This document shows positions 25,392-58,503 of a stretch of 64,000 nucleotides of DNA, piece after piece. The stretch's first letter is position 1. The number at the start of each line of letters is the position of its first letter. The stretch is from a virus. Taxonomy: Duplodnaviria; Caudoviricetes. The notes under the pieces were generated by a model. That model did no database searches and had not been told where the DNA came from. It saw only the letters and a list, made by a program, of their open reading frames with translations. Where the stretch lies: positions 25,717 through 89,716 of the IMG/VR virus record IMGVR_UViG_3300047282_000191; one strand, given 5' to 3'. The position numbers and the translations under genes were made by a program.

Positions 25392-25727
25392 TTAAGGTCG
25401 AGTTGCTCTTGGTGTTACTGTTACTTGCCCTTCAACGACTCGGATAACTGTACCCAAGGTCGAATGGACTATTTCTATATCATAAACATAACGACCGTCT
25501 CGCATAGCACTTGTTTGTGCTGCAGTTAATGTCAACTTTACTTCGCCCTGGTTGGTTGTCTTTGCACAACCAATATTCACTGCGGTAGAAGATGTATATG
25601 TTTTTCTAATTTGACCACGAACTGTATACGGACCAAGATCAATGGGCGTACCAATAGAATCTTCGATATCCAATGTGGCCACAAAGTCTGAGCCTTGGTC
25701 TATAACTAGGTTAACTAACTGAGACAT
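25392..25727 (-). CDS. BppU-N-like Ig-fold structural protein
   Basis: NL.IDQG.DF, DL..YT...QIRK.Y.S, G...L.LTA.QT....GRYVYD.E, RV.EG...VTP. Confidence 0.7.
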   Translation of the reverse strand: MSQLVNLVIDQGSDFVATLDIEDSIGTPIDLGPYTVRGQIRKTYTSSTAVNIGCAKTTNQGEVKLTLTAAQTSAMRDGRYVYDIEIVHSTLGTVIRVVEGQVTVTPRATRP

Positions 25728-54203: not shown

Positions 54204-54845
54204 ATGCCACAAATCGACAAGTTTAAATCAGTCATATCTAAGCGAGGAGGTCTTGCACCGCAAAATCGATTCGCCGTTTACATGGCTTTACCACTAATTA
54301 GCTTCGATCCACAAAATTTGATCGCCCGAGCGTTTGGACAAGGCACTTCTAGTCCATTTTTAAACGATCCACGCGATGTTTCGATACTTTGTGACTCTGT
54401 AATGCTTCCAGGACGTCAAATTTCGACTTCCGAAGTACAAACTAACTTATTGAGCGTAAAAACACCTTACACTTACATCAACGATGACGTCACGATGAGC
54501 TTCCACATCACAAATGATCACTTTATGAAGAAATTTTTCGAAAATTGGTTCAATAGGATGTTCGATCGTAAAAAAATGGTCATGAAATATCGTTCTCAGT
54601 TCACGACTGACGTAATTATTCAACAATTGGATCAAAGAGACGTTCCAGTTTACTCAATATCACTAAAAAATGCGTTTCCAACAAGCATAACATCGTATGA
54701 ATTGACAAACAGCGGTGAAAATCAAACCCAAAAGCTAACAATCACGCTATCTTATGAAGATTGGAGTGAAGAGGGATTTGTAGAATCAGTCCTTTCGAAA
54801 GGGAAAGTACTACTTGGCTCTGTCGGCCGAACATTTGGAGTATAA
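54204..54845 (+). CDS. gp54: Baseplate tail tube initiator (gp19/gp54 fold)
   Basis: GGLA..NRF.V, C.SV..PGR.I.T, K.PY.....DV...F, W...........Y...Y...I.I.Q, L..A.P......L......LT.T..Y. Confidence 0.8.
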   Translation: MPQIDKFKSVISKRGGLAPQNRFAVYMALPLISFDPQNLIARAFGQGTSSPFLNDPRDVSILCDSVMLPGRQISTSEVQTNLLSVKTPYTYINDDVTMSFHITNDHFMKKFFENWFNRMFDRKKMVMKYRSQFTTDVIIQQLDQRDVPVYSISLKNAFPTSITSYELTNSGENQTQKLTITLSYEDWSEEGFVESVLSKGKVLLGSVGRTFGV

Positions 54846-54866: not shown

Positions 54867-55577
54867 ATGTCTTTACCTATTATTTTAAACACGCCGTCCT
54901 ATGAAGTGGAACTACCATTAAGTAAGAAAACGGTAAAATACAGACCATATTTGGTCAAAGAAGAGAAGCTATTGATGATGGCTATGGAATCTCAAGATCA
55001 AAAGCAGATCTTAAGAGCAGTCCAAGATATCATTGAAGCATGTACATTCGGTGAAGTGAAGGCAAAAACATTGCCGACAGCTGAACTCGAGTTGCTTTTC
55101 TTAAAACTCAGGTCTAAATCAGTCGGTGAAACGACCCAGGTTGGATATGAGTGTAAGAATTGTGGTACAAAAAACGAATTAGTCGTCAACTTAGAAGCAG
55201 TAGAACTTACTCAAGCTAAGAAGACAGACAGTAAGATCTTGTTAACAGATAAAGTTGGTGTAATCATGAAGTTCCCAACTGCTGATGACGTGACAAGAGC
55301 AATTGGTTCTAATGAAGGCGAAGTTAAAAATACATTTGCTATCATCACATCTTGTATAGAAGCTATATTTGATGATAATGGTGTATATGAAGCAGCCAAC
55401 TTAGAAAGAAAAGAAGTAGAGTCGTGTGTTGATTCACTGAATTCGCAACAATTTAAGAAGATCCAAGAATTTTTCGAAGGACTACCTAAGTTGTCGCATG
55501 ATGCGAGCTTTGATTGTGTGAATTGTGGGACCCATAACAAGTTAGTTATCGAGGGCCTCCAAGCTTTTTTCGTCTAG
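54867..55577 (+). CDS. gp26: Baseplate hub assembly chaperone
   Basis: LP.L..P.YE..LP.S...V.YRP.LVKEEK.L..A.E, D.E.LFL..R.KSVGE, C..C, F....PKL, C..C......EGL..FF. Confidence 0.92.
   Translation: MSLPIILNTPSYEVELPLSKKTVKYRPYLVKEEKLLMMAMESQDQKQILRAVQDIIEACTFGEVKAKTLPTAELELLFLKLRSKSVGETTQVGYECKNCGTKNELVVNLEAVELTQAKKTDSKILLTDKVGVIMKFPTADDVTRAIGSNEGEVKNTFAIITSCIEAIFDDNGVYEAANLERKEVESCVDSLNSQQFKKIQEFFEGLPKLSHDASFDCVNCGTHNKLVIEGLQAFFV
55565..55571 (+). other. Candidate -1 ribosomal frameshift site T TTT TTC joining gp26 to the gp51 frame
   Basis: X XXY YYZ heptamer two codons before the gp26 TAG; the -1 frame is open into LALSHESLENHF... Confidence 0.6.
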
Positions 55578-55765
55578 CTCTCTCACATGAATCCTTGGAG
55601 AACCATTTCCGAGGAAACTTCATCATGATGCAACATCACAAGTATAGTTTAACAGAGCTAAATGAGATGTTACCATGGGAGAGAGAAGTATATGTGGCTA
55701 TGTTGATTGAATATGTTAAGGAAGAAAACGAACGTATTAAGAAGGCAAATCAAAAATACCACTAA
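55574..55765 (+). CDS. gp51: Baseplate hub assembly catalyst frame (no AUG upstream of the conserved N-terminal LSHESL)
   Basis: Not in the ORF track. Hand-translated LALSHESLENHFRGNFIMMQHHKYSLTELNEMLPWEREVYVAMLIEYVKEENERIKKANQKYH; MQHHKYSL.E...M.PWER..Y is the gp51 signature. Confidence 0.88.
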   Translation, partial: LALSHESLENHFRGNFIMMQHHKYSLTELNEMLPWEREVYVAMLIEYVKEENERIKKANQKYH

Positions 55766-55774
55766 GGAGTAGAA

Positions 55775-56215
55775 ATGGCAGACGAACAGAAAAATTATAA
55801 CGAGATGTCTGATAGCGAAAAGAAAAAAGAAGATTGGATGAATAGCAAATGGCGTCCAGCTATGGGTTGGATGTACATGGCTGTGTGCATATTCGACTTT
55901 GTCCTTGCACCGATCTTATGGGCAATCATCCAGTTCTGGGAAACTTCTGCAGCGAATGATGCATTCCGTCAATGGCAACCACTAACACTACAAGGCGCTG
56001 GTCTTTTCCATATGGCTATGGGTGCAGTGTTAGGTCTTGCAGCATGGGGTAGAACACAAGAGAAATTAGGCGGAGCAAACAATGGTGGTATATCACCTCC
56101 ATCAATCCCAACACCATCTGTACCAACCCCATCAGTTGGCGGAGATACTCCTGCAGTCGTAGTTCCAAAAGTACCACCAGTCGTGGCTCCACCAAAGATC
56201 CCGACTGCTTCATAA
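55775..56215 (+). CDS. Holin-like 3-TM membrane protein (GTA-holin type) with Pro-rich tail
   Basis: WRPAMGW.Y...C.FDF...P, PL.LQ..G.FH..MGA.LG..AWGRT.EK. Confidence 0.65.
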   Translation: MADEQKNYNEMSDSEKKKEDWMNSKWRPAMGWMYMAVCIFDFVLAPILWAIIQFWETSAANDAFRQWQPLTLQGAGLFHMAMGAVLGLAAWGRTQEKLGGANNGGISPPSIPTPSVPTPSVGGDTPAVVVPKVPPVVAPPKIPTAS

Positions 56216-56227
56216 GGTTAAGATAAA

Positions 56228-57793
56228 ATGGCAAAAGCAAAGTACGTCACCTCTGGTTCAAACATACAAGAACTCATCGAGGCAGTTAAACAGTCCAACA
56301 AGATCCTCACGGATACTCAAGATGATGGAGTTGTTGACACGTATGCACTCAAAGGTATCCACAATGTATTGATCGACATCGATGACTCCATCAAAGCGAT
56401 AGAGAAGATCGTCGTCGGCAACCACATGAAAGACCTCGAGAAGGCGAAAGAGCAGTCTGACTACAATGCGCAGATCCTCGACGCTTTGAAGGGACTTAAA
56501 CCTAAGCCAGACGACAAGCAGAAGAAAGCCGATAAAGGTGATTTCTCCTGGCTCGGTCTTGCTGGTGCATTGATCGGCGGTTTGGTCATGGGTGGTCTTG
56601 CTTTTGTGAAGAACTACATCAAAGGCTTTGTTGGTTTCTGGACAAAGGCTGCTAAGATGCTTAAGCTCGATGTGCTCGTACTTAAACTCTTCGAATACAT
56701 CAAGGCACCGTTTGAATTCATCAAAGGTGGTTTTATCAAGGTCGTCGACTTCGTCAAAGGCCTATTTAAGGGTGAAGGGTTATTGACGATGCTGAAGGGC
56801 AACGTCCTTAAGTTGTTTACCATCATCGGAGACTTCTTTGGGTTCTCAGGTAAAGGACTATTCAAAGACTTCGTTCGTATGTTCGAGTCGGTCGGCGACA
56901 TGATATCAGGCACAGCAAAAGCGATAGGTAGTTTCTTTGCCAAGATATTCTCTCTAGGCAGCGGAGAAGGTGGTCTATTCTCTAAGATCGCTGGTGCGAT
57001 GGACTTCTTTGGTCCATTGACCAAGTTCTTCAAGGCATTTGGTTCTATCCTCGGTAAGTTAGCATACCCTATCCAAGTCGTCATGAGTGTGTTCGATACC
57101 GTGACAGGTGCATTGGACGGCTGGAACAAGACAGAGGGCGACTTCATGGCCAAGTTCTTTGGTGCTCTGAAGGGCGGCGTCACGGGACTCTTGAATGGTC
57201 TGATCGGTGGGTTGTTAGACCTACTCAAGGACGGCATGTCTTGGCTAGTTAACTTATTAGGGTTTGAGAACGCAGCGAAGGTACTCGATAGCTTCTCATT
57301 CTCTGACCTCATCAAGAAAGGCGTCGAGGGTTTCTATAACTTCATCGAGGGCATGATACGCTATGTCATGGACATCTTCAAAGATCCAGGCAAGTTAGTC
57401 GCCGACGTTGGTGACCTCTTTGGTAAGATCAGTGACATGGCGAAGAACTTCTTAAAGACACTCCTTCGTTCTATACTCCCTAACCCATCCTCTGATAACA
57501 TCGCTGTGAAGATGGCTGCGAAGGCCATACCAGATGCGGTGTATGAATTTGCAGGCATGAACCCGAAGACAGGCGAACTCCAAGGTGCTACCGTCGATAA
57601 CGTGGCTGCGAAGGGCGAACAGATGGTAAACCAGGCAGTCGCCGCGGGCCAACAAGCCGTACAAGGTGTGGTGAATGCAGGTCAGACCATCATCAACAAC
57701 GGTAATACTGCCCTCATGAGTGCACGCTCTAAGATCAGAGATACTGAGGACATGCTAGCAAGAGGATGGAACTCCCTCGGCTTCGGGTCTTAA
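56228..57793 (+). CDS. Tape-measure-like baseplate hub protein (gp29-like)
   Basis: Long amphipathic G/A/F/K-rich helical repeats, directly downstream of gp26/gp51. Confidence 0.65.
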   Translation: MAKAKYVTSGSNIQELIEAVKQSNKILTDTQDDGVVDTYALKGIHNVLIDIDDSIKAIEKIVVGNHMKDLEKAKEQSDYNAQILDALKGLKPKPDDKQKKADKGDFSWLGLAGALIGGLVMGGLAFVKNYIKGFVGFWTKAAKMLKLDVLVLKLFEYIKAPFEFIKGGFIKVVDFVKGLFKGEGLLTMLKGNVLKLFTIIGDFFGFSGKGLFKDFVRMFESVGDMISGTAKAIGSFFAKIFSLGSGEGGLFSKIAGAMDFFGPLTKFFKAFGSILGKLAYPIQVVMSVFDTVTGALDGWNKTEGDFMAKFFGALKGGVTGLLNGLIGGLLDLLKDGMSWLVNLLGFENAAKVLDSFSFSDLIKKGVEGFYNFIEGMIRYVMDIFKDPGKLVADVGDLFGKISDMAKNFLKTLLRSILPNPSSDNIAVKMAAKAIPDAVYEFAGMNPKTGELQGATVDNVAAKGEQMVNQAVAAGQQAVQGVVNAGQTIINNGNTALMSARSKIRDTEDMLARGWNSLGFGS

Positions 57794-58020
57794 CCACCCT
57801 CTTCGTCATCGCCACAACCATAACCCTCGGAAACTTCCTCCGAGGTGCTTATCTCTGTATATCCGAAAAAAACCCCTACTGTAACACCGAACTACAATCC
57901 CAGGCAGACAGACGCTGGGAAAACATCCGCGCACTCCAATCTACCAGGCAGATAGCCAGCTCACGAAATTTTATAGACGAAGAAGAGTTCTGGGATATGA
58001 TACTGAAGGAGAGACTGTAG
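57766..58020 (+). CDS. Possible small membrane-anchored protein
   Basis: One N-terminal hydrophobic stretch; overlaps the gp29-like 3' end by 28 nt; weak RBS. Confidence 0.3.
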   Translation: MELPRLRVLTTLFVIATTITLGNFLRGAYLCISEKNPYCNTELQSQADRRWENIRALQSTRQIASSRNFIDEEEFWDMILKERL

Positions 58021-58081
58021 TTACACCTGTAGATAATAGAATACAACAACCTAGAGGAACCAAACAATAAGTGTGTTGTAC

Positions 58082-58182
58082 GGGATTAATCTGGGGGGAT
58101 CAGTTATACCCCAGGGGAATTTTTTCAGATGTGAACCTGAGAACGAAGTGAACTTCTGGGGAAACAAACTGGGGGTGGGGGG
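58082..58182. other. G-tract cluster in the gap where late (+) and early (-) transcription converge
   Basis: G3, G6, G4, G4, G5-T-G6 runs within 100 nt; CTGGGG...CCCCAG inverted repeat at 58091-58114. Confidence 0.45.
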
Positions 58183-58296
58183 AATTTCCAGAGATTAGGT
58201 GACGGAAGCATACGGCTGAACCGAAAGGGTAACCAATAGATGGTCTCCTATTAATATGGAACCTTAGTATAGATGGGACCCATAGGGGCTGCTGAT

Positions 58297-58503
58297 TTAA
58301 TTCTGAGATTCTGGTATAGGTGTTATGCTACTCTTCCAGCTGTAGTCCCATTTTGTCTGATCTACTGGCGGCTGGTAGGTCTTGTGTACCCTCGGCGGAT
58401 GAGACCAACGGTATAGTTCCCTCTCTGCATCTATGTACGTGGCCAATAGGAGTAGGACTATACAGATATAGGCTGACCACTTTAATGGCTTGATATCATC
58501 CAT
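58297..58503 (-). CDS. Small early protein with one TM segment
   Basis: WSAYICIVLLLLATYI hydrophobic stretch; packed against neighbours. Confidence 0.55.
   Translation of the reverse strand: MDDIKPLKWSAYICIVLLLLATYIDAERELYRWSHPPRVHKTYQPPVDQTKWDYSWKSSITPIPESQN

Follow-up and report, generated by a model that had tools for sequence, protein, structure and literature searches.

Xu, Hendrix and Duda are said to have described, in 2004, a conserved -1 frameshift of tail assembly chaperone (TAC) genes, with gpG/gpGT of phage lambda as the example. The lambda shift takes place on the slippery heptamer G_GGA_AAG, and E/E+E' of phage P2 is a further -1 frameshift chaperone pair. The -1 frameshift of E. 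coli dnaX combines the heptamer A_AAA_AAG with an internal Shine-Dalgarno (SD) sequence 10 nt upstream and a hairpin about 6 nt downstream. Two frames can also be joined by programmed transcriptional slippage, and the runs documented for it in bacteria are usually of about nine bases (A9 in Thermus dnaX, T9 in Shigella mxiE). For phage T4, Leiman et al. 2010 (PMC3004832) name gp26 and gp51 simply as “hub assembly chaperones”; assembly requires gp51, and the particle does not contain it. To judge from the title of Vladimirov, Gautam and Davidson (Virology 2022; 566:9-15, doi 10.1016/j.virol.2021.11.003, cited as reference 26 of PMC9603447), gp26/gp51 have already been published as the tail assembly chaperones of T4-like phages, and the locus presented here is a further example. 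It lies in a stretch of 64,000 nt (hereafter, the window) that covers positions 25,717 to 89,716 of IMG/VR virus record IMGVR_UViG_3300047282_000191 and belongs to an uncultured freshwater T4-like phage. As far as its sequence and those of its relatives indicate, one gene of the window, 54867-55577, probably yields two forms of a tail (baseplate-hub) assembly chaperone through ribosomal -1 slippage.

The locus was compared with 80 IMG/VR loci, with gp26 identities of 36-53%, and with isolates, which together provided 85 distinct junctions. The surveys of start codons and of anti-SD pairing covered 81 relatives, and the count of a conserved Met covered 80. The isolates added are the cyanophages P-TIM40 and S-SM1, Acidovorax ACP17, a KVP40-like Vibrio phage, Aeromonas CC2 and PX29, Cronobacter S13, Rhizobium RHph_Y68 and Acinetobacter SH-Ab 15599. 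A megablast search of the locus against phage records gave zero matches. The elements of the locus are given below in the coordinates of the window.

54867..55577, + strand: gp26-like open reading frame (ORF) of 236 aa, the short form of the chaperone (TAC-N), assigned from PF12322, phrog_150 and an AlphaFold2 (AF2) model.
55551..55555, + strand: SD-like GAGGG, 9 nt 5' of the heptamer, candidate dnaX-type stimulator, proposed from anti-SD duplex energy and synonymous bias.
55565..55571, + strand: slippery heptamer T_TTT_TTC, in the X_XXY_YYZ phase of the gp26 frame and conserved in relatives.
55571..55765, + strand: continuation in the -1 frame, a gp51-like extension of 64 codons plus TAA, identified from its translation, phrog_634 and phrog_150.
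55575..55577, + strand: 0-frame stop TAG, one codon past the heptamer; a stop follows the heptamer after 0-1 codons in 81/85 junctions.
55587..55623, + strand: RNA hairpin with an inner 10-bp stem (55592-55601 with 55606-55615) and loop ACCA, proposed from minimum free energy (MFE) and covariation.

The gp26-like ORF has AGGAG 8 nt 5' of its ATG. It matches PF12322 (T4_baseplate) over residues 10-235 with 220.7 bits and an E-value of 2.5e-65 (cut-off 24.5), and phrog_150, “baseplate hub”, with an E-value of 6.6e-68. Its 3' end reads GCT TTT TTC GTC TAG, and after a -1 slip on T_TTT_TTC both tRNA-Phe can re-pair. The -1 frame is limited upstream by TAA 55535-37, is open from 55538 to TAA 55763-65, and reads QVSYRGPPSFFRLALSHESLENHF...QKYH, with its earliest TTG at 55595 and its earliest ATG at 55625. 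These facts (i.e., the gene end, the heptamer, the limits of the -1 frame, and the TTG and ATG positions) had been given in a preliminary description made from the window alone, and all were correct on re-reading. The predicted fusion (TAC-NC) would consist of 235 aa from frame 0 and 64 aa from frame -1, 299 aa in all, with the junction ...EGLQAFF/RLALSHESLENHF... (the slash marks the change of frame) and the predicted junction peptide ...EGLQAFFRLALSHESLENHFR in the phage of the window.

The heptamer alone is not rare, given that the window has 14 copies of TTTTTTC where 20 would be expected, so the argument depends on its context and its conservation. What goes beyond chance is the phase of the heptamer, the single codon that separates it from the stop, the homologous continuation in the -1 frame, and conservation in all 85 junctions. 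Every one of these junctions has an in-phase heptamer of the T_TTT_TTY type (TTC in 65, TTT in 19, and TTG in one), and the canonical site occurs in all the isolates named above, with the TTG variant in Rhizobium RHph_Y68. The codon 5' of the heptamer is NNT in 85/85 (AGT 33, AAT 15, TCT 15, GAT 14, GCT 7, GGT 1), although five amino acids are encoded there, and the first Phe codon is TTT in 85/85. Measured against gene-wide codon usage and with relatedness ignored, these two invariances have a log10 P of about -20 and about -11, respectively. Other Phe-Phe pairs within the same genes are mostly written TTC TTT, and form the heptamer in 2/60 cases. The run is T6 in 66 junctions and T7-T8 in the remainder.

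From the two Phe onward, the -1 peptides align without gaps as FFR[IV]ALSHDSLxNYYxTNFA[LM]MQHHKYSLTEL..PWEREIYV. Over the 19 codons of the -1 frame that lie 5' of the first conserved Met, the entropy per codon position is 1.05/0.75/1.50; the highest variation is thus at third positions, which is the signature of a translated -1 frame. The frame holds no ATG, GTG or TTG at or 5' of the site in 76/81 relatives, the earliest possible start falls anywhere from codon +3 to codon +33, and in five relatives the frame opens exactly at the two Phe. The 75-aa translation of the -1 frame matches phrog_634, “baseplate hub assembly catalyst”, with an E-value of 3.3e-27, and the match begins at both Phe. 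In addition, the 282 positions of phrog_150 are tiled by gp26 (5-232) and the -1 piece (223-278), which shows that homology continues across the frame change. By these signatures the coding part of the -1 frame begins at the slip site, upstream of any start codon, and a -1 change of frame on the T-run very probably gives rise to a fused long form. The preliminary description had proposed aligning the junctions for a conserved heptamer and an absent gp51 start, and the alignment displays both (85/85 and 76/81, respectively). It had also named the contrary outcome, relatives without the heptamer and with a conserved gp51 start and ribosome-binding site; among these junctions there is none without the heptamer, the starts are scattered, and no conserved SD precedes them.

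In the mechanism we propose, most ribosomes would read GCT TTT TTC GTC and stop at TAG 55575, which would give the 236-aa short form of gp26 type, TAC-N. A minority would slip back one base with two tRNA-Phe on T_TTT_TTC (55565-55571), read CGT CTA GCT onward in the -1 frame to TAA 55763-65, and so give the 299-aa long form, TAC-NC. The most likely stimulator is the GAGGG 9 nt upstream, which would pair with 16S rRNA as in E. coli dnaX, and the nearby stop and the downstream hairpin may add to slippage. By analogy with lambda G/GT, the N-terminal chaperone domain shared by both forms would coat the tape-measure-like protein encoded downstream, and in the rare long form the extension would serve to attach the complex to proteins of the hub or tube. 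That the ribosome slips rather than the polymerase, the ratio of the two forms, and their binding partners are points that we infer.

The case for GAGGG comes from the 81 relatives. At its offset the anti-SD duplex energy peaks at a mean of -6.1 kcal/mol, against a background of 0.05 +/- 1.3, and an SD-like 4-mer stands there in 71/81; between -150 and +60 this peak 5' of the heptamer is the sole SD-like one. Synonymous codon choice points the same way. The Glu codon of the motif is GAG in 32/43 cases, compared with 26% gene-wide (p ~5e-11, relatedness ignored) and with 7/35 at other Glu-Gly pairs, and Gly in the motif is written GGG in 20% of cases, compared with 6.6%. The two features sought for a dnaX-type site, an in-phase X_XXY_YYZ heptamer and an SD-like element about 10 nt upstream, are thus both present, and the window element resembles E. 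coli dnaX in its heptamer phase, in the spacing of the SD-like element, and in selection at synonymous sites. It differs in its hairpin, which is 15-20 nt away and partly conserved, and in its shifted product, which is the longer of the two forms, whereas that of dnaX is the shorter.

The hairpin, which the preliminary description had placed at 55592-55615 and considered rather distant for a stimulator, is real, with its 10-bp stem and, over 55587-55623, an MFE of -17.6 kcal/mol (z = -2.9 vs dinucleotide shuffles); it is too distant for a classical stimulator and only moderately conserved. In relatives, 65.8% of cells in its register are paired, compared with 31-47% in slid controls, and its covariation score of 0.313 (0.243 in shuffles) was reached by 0/500 shuffles. 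The 60 nt 3' of the heptamer fold slightly better than windows inside gp26, with a mean of -10.0 vs -8.6 kcal/mol. A helix of GAGGG with CCCUC enclosing the heptamer was also considered and rejected, since it presents no covariation and its score is no better than that of shuffled or slid controls. Between the two candidates, GAGGG has the better support as stimulator.

The same two proteins would be produced if the RNA polymerase slipped instead, adding an extra U on the T6 run, whereupon the mRNA would be read straight from gp26 into the gp51-like extension. We consider this account possible, yet unlikely. The locus does resemble programmed transcriptional slippage as known from Thermus dnaX (A9) and Shigella mxiE (T9), in that a homopolymer run joins two frames and one added base gives the same fusion. 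It differs in that the run has six T and in that there is no RNA heterogeneity among the few low-depth contigs. This part of the window is present in three metatranscriptome libraries, and two contigs of read length, from two of these, cross the run without an indel, at a depth of about 2; their lack of an extra T is weak evidence against polymerase slippage. Stem-loop-mediated slippage has a hairpin immediately 5' of the run, whereas none is found here. In Stenotrophomonas phage IME-SM1 the run is T5 and the extension then lies in the +1 frame, which would suit a slipping polymerase.

A comparison of T runs of at least six with synonymous shuffles in 377 ORFs gave, by phase, 49 vs 72.5, 12 vs 37.5, and 38 vs 87.6. 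Such runs are depleted inside ORFs in all three phases, as if runs as such were costly, which speaks for polymerase slippage; given that all three phases are affected, however, the test does not separate it from ribosomal slippage.

Several further points weigh against ribosomal slippage, or against the wider chaperone reading. The long form is a prediction from sequence, and so is the minority of ribosomes that would slip. The SD-like motif overlaps a conserved x-Gly-Leu that is also kept in T4 gp26, where there is no frameshift, and the motif is therefore partly a protein constraint. The outer stem of the hairpin begins 15 nt and its inner stem 20 nt 3' of the heptamer, beyond the 5-9 nt spacing of the stem-loop in dnaX-type frameshifts and farther than a classical stimulator would lie, and the consensus structure that RNAalifold gave for the junction alignment was empty; for both reasons the hairpin is an uncertain accessory. 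The invariant feature of the junctions is a homopolymer run, T6-T8, and a U-run is also a polymerase-slippage motif; since a yield of a few per cent would be enough, a run of T6-T8 might supply it. The title of Vladimirov et al. 2022, for its part, points away from ribosomal frameshifting, and its authors reportedly propose transcriptional slippage. The RNA data are assembled Logan contigs at low depth, in which rare variants are dropped and neither strand nor level is retained. Finally, the fold Z-scores of 5-8 reported below are middling by VIA-align's own caution.

Against polymerase slippage, in turn, the run is only T6 in 66/85 junctions and is never lengthened on its 5' side (i.e., the preceding codon is never NTT), and it is only to ribosomes in translation that the synonymous bias to GAGGG would be of evident use. 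We favour ribosomal slippage on account of this bias 9 nt upstream and of a run that in most junctions does not exceed six T. For the -1 frameshift at the heptamer that the preliminary description had proposed, the fusion through a -1 change of frame is supported, with the site in 85/85 junctions and a coding -1 frame, and the ribosome is the more probable of the two machines to slip.

A third account has no fusion at all: the gp51-like piece would be a peptide of its own, 46-56 aa long, started at TTG 55595 or ATG 55625 and acting non-covalently with gp26. The Met at the MQHH motif is indeed conserved in 65/80 relatives, the window has GAGGA 9 nt before ATG 55625 (55611-55627, within the 3' arm of the hairpin), and in many GenBank records a short gene is entered as “gp51 / baseplate hub assembly catalyst”. 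However, about 20 codons before this Met are conserved as protein from the exact FF site, with variation at third positions, and a free peptide leaves the invariance of the heptamer and of NNT unexplained. The earliest starts of the relatives are scattered with no conserved SD ahead of them, and the relatives have no SD matching the GAGGA of the window. T4 gp51 and phrog_150 have the fused architecture, and several records leave the stretch of about 190 nt blank because no start was found. As a replacement for the fusion, the free peptide is therefore very improbable; a 46-aa peptide could be made in the phage of the window beside the fusion.

That the frame break reflects a sequencing error in the homopolymer or the decay of the gene, the true gene being a single in-frame gp51-like ORF, has next to no likelihood. 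The fusion is in frame in an ENA metagenome protein, P0001 (224 aa, encoded on a contig of 790 nt), and IME-SM1 differs by one T, but the same frame arrangement occurs in 85 independent junctions, some of them in finished genomes of isolates that belong to several phage families, a DNA contig with a depth of about 127 equals the window across the site without an indel, and the stop 0-1 codons after the heptamer is kept in 81/85.

Some junctions outside this set depart from the pattern. In IME-SM1 (KR560069.1; L093:1415-1435), the T5 site reads GAG GAT TTT TCG GCT GAT. As annotated, gp26 is prolonged there by 30 unrelated codons, and the gp51-like extension (..IFRLMLPEGKLQDLLSHF..MHPFELE..) is in the +1 frame; one added T would restore the layout of FF, one codon and TGA. 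Either the T5 is a sequencing error in the homopolymer, or the variant is genuine and requires another kind of shift. In Salmonella phage Vi01 (L086:2285-2470) and Vibrio phage K446 (L088:2055-2255), a gp51-like extension with an MPWH motif lies in the -1 frame and the canonical heptamer is absent. The Vi01 junction is GAA ATT TTC ATT TAA, and that of K446 is CTT TTC AAG TAA TG, in which an ATG overlaps the stop. In these clades a non-canonical slip may operate, or else coupled re-initiation.

Among ENA metagenome proteins, P0001 joins the extension to the gp26 domain within a single frame (..GAADFFLSTLSHESL..), and P0002 and P0004 begin at the MMQHHKYSL motif and continue in frame into a downstream hydrophobic protein. 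The C-terminal part of P0002 has no significant match to the 146-aa protein of the window described below. Precomputed domains of the ENA proteins assign Pfam family PF28602 to the gp51-like extension.

The chaperone assignment draws further support from the predicted fold and from the neighbouring genes. The AF2 model of the window gp26, built from 69 sequences, has a mean pLDDT (predicted local distance difference test) of 94.9. Among 48,161 chains, tail assembly chaperones account for four of the top five VIA-align matches, all on gp26 residues 1 to about 90, as follows (rmsd, root-mean-square deviation).

3fgx, Rbstp2171: Z 8.1, rmsd 3.9 Å, 85 residues aligned.
2ob9, HK97 tail assembly chaperone (HK97 gp13): Z 7.3, rmsd 3.1 Å, 82 residues aligned.
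3klu, YqbN: Z 6.7, rmsd 3.9 Å, 86 residues aligned.
5ir0, PLE1 chaperone: Z 5.2, rmsd 4.5 Å, 81 residues aligned.

The first three are identified as phage tail assembly chaperones in PMC9603447 and 5ir0 in PMC12987554. Four chaperones in the top five matches of a predicted model is not chance-like, and the N-terminal ~90 residues of gp26 are predicted to fold like known tail assembly chaperones. A Foldseek search of the model against the PDB returned nothing at E <= 0.001, and phmmer of gp26 against PDB sequences returned nothing relevant. The gp26-like protein does not fall into the Pfam Phage_TAC group, as a scan at E <= 0.01 yields only PF12322 and weak zinc-ribbon matches.

The gp26 of the window has two CxxC pairs, CKNC and CVNC, at 55147-55158 and 55510-55521 (residues ~95-98 and ~215-218). 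In the model these meet as a small zinc-ribbon-like element, with weak matches to ZitP, NrdR and LysW (Z ~3.3-3.5). Their cysteines are missing in some cyanophage homologues, e.g., P-TIM40.

The neighbouring genes are the following.

54204..54845, + strand: tail-tube-family gene, gp19/gp54-like, probable tube initiator (PF06841 Phage_T4_gp19, E 1.5e-8; phrog_45 tail tube, E 2.5e-34).
55775..56215, + strand: 146-aa membrane protein (PF11351 GTA_holin_3TM, E 1.2e-6; phrog_3427, E 4.4e-9).
56228..57793, + strand: 521-aa Gly-rich tape-measure-like protein (phrog_5493 tail length tape measure protein, E 3.5e-8; weaker tape-measure families).

The order is hence tube-like gene, chaperone, 146-aa membrane protein, tape-measure-like gene. 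The gene 5' of gp26 is annotated as gp54 in Aeromonas CC2, Aeromonas PX29 and Cronobacter S13. The 521-aa protein had no Pfam match in the window scan and no significant BLASTP match to the cyanophage gene at the same position, and its assignment from phrog_5493 as a putative tape measure protein is weak. Even so, that match agrees with the preliminary description, which had noted a tape-measure-like gene after the gp26/gp51 pair; the gene lies beyond the 146-aa membrane protein. Over the ~700 nt 3' of it (57794-58495) there is no ORF longer than 84 aa on either strand and no tRNA.

Compared with lambda gpG/gpGT, the locus shares a -1 slip near the end of the first ORF and a second ORF without its own start. 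The gene likewise follows a tube-family gene beside a tape-measure gene, and the N-terminal domain of its product is predicted to have the HK97 gp13 chaperone fold. The differences are that gp26 of the window has no match to the Pfam tail assembly chaperone families; that its short form, at 236 aa, is twice as long, with an extra half containing the zinc-ribbon-like element; that the heptamer is U_UUU_UUC and the 0-frame stop comes at once; and that the 146-aa membrane protein separates the chaperone from the tape-measure-like gene. The likeness to a G/GT-type chaperone pair, first suggested from the window alone, is thus supported by comparative, profile and fold evidence and by the tape-measure-like gene nearby.

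In T4, genes 26 and 51 are divergent neighbours. T4 gp26 (208 aa) is the PF12322 domain alone and matches the same model as T4 gp51 (249 aa), whose residues 1-201 match PF12322 (E 7.7e-55) and whose residues 147-246 match phrog_634, and which covers phrog_150 positions 13-280 in a single frame. T4 gp51 is therefore a complete gp26 paralogue with an in-frame extension, i.e., the equivalent of the predicted 299-aa fusion. The 3' end of T4 gene 26, GAG TTC TTT GAG TTA CTA TAA, contains no heptamer. Both phages use the same family and the same logic of a short and a long form, and the predicted fusion of the window has the architecture of T4 gp51, with the gp51-type C-terminal extension running on from the gp26-like domain (phrog_634, phrog_150). 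T4, however, uses two divergently transcribed paralogues without a heptamer, whereas the gene of the window must change frame. The preliminary description had regarded the locus as a T4-like version of G/GT that T4 itself keeps as two separate genes. T4 does have two genes, but its gp51 is not a small piece, being a full gp26 paralogue with the extension in frame.

A broader proposal can be put forward at even chances. T4 genes 26 and 51 would be the duplicated, “unslipped” resolution of an older one-gene recoding system, in which the shift would be ribosomal and driven by a dnaX-like GAGGG that is kept through selection on synonymous positions in the T4-like phages that infect cyanobacteria, vibrios, aeromonads, rhizobia and freshwater methylotrophs.

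Current annotation does not represent the locus as one gene. None of the 20 GenBank records examined has a joined coding sequence. In the cyanophages S-WAM1 (L090:913-1104), S-CAM1 (L091:913-1098) and ACG-2014d (L092:913-1101), the gp51-like stretch of about 190 nt is unannotated in GenBank, and other records call an ORF of 46-60 aa from an internal ATG. A full-text literature search found no paper on the gp26/gp51 slip site. The finding is real, ancient and widespread, and it is not new. If the shift is ribosomal, through a maintained internal SD, this would be contrary to the non-translational mechanism that the title of the 2022 paper gives.

Besides one more example, the window adds some comparative evidence on whether the ribosome or the polymerase slips, and its importance is mainly for annotation. 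Hundreds of records of T4-like phages (cyanophages, KVP40-like vibriophages, Aeromonas and Rhizobium phages) carry a start-less “gp51” of 46-60 aa or about 190 nt left blank. Read as one recoded chaperone gene, the locus explains the apparent gene 51 stub in most T4-like phages, and this reading would tie the long-puzzling “catalytic” gp51 of T4 to the minor long form of the lambda-type chaperones.

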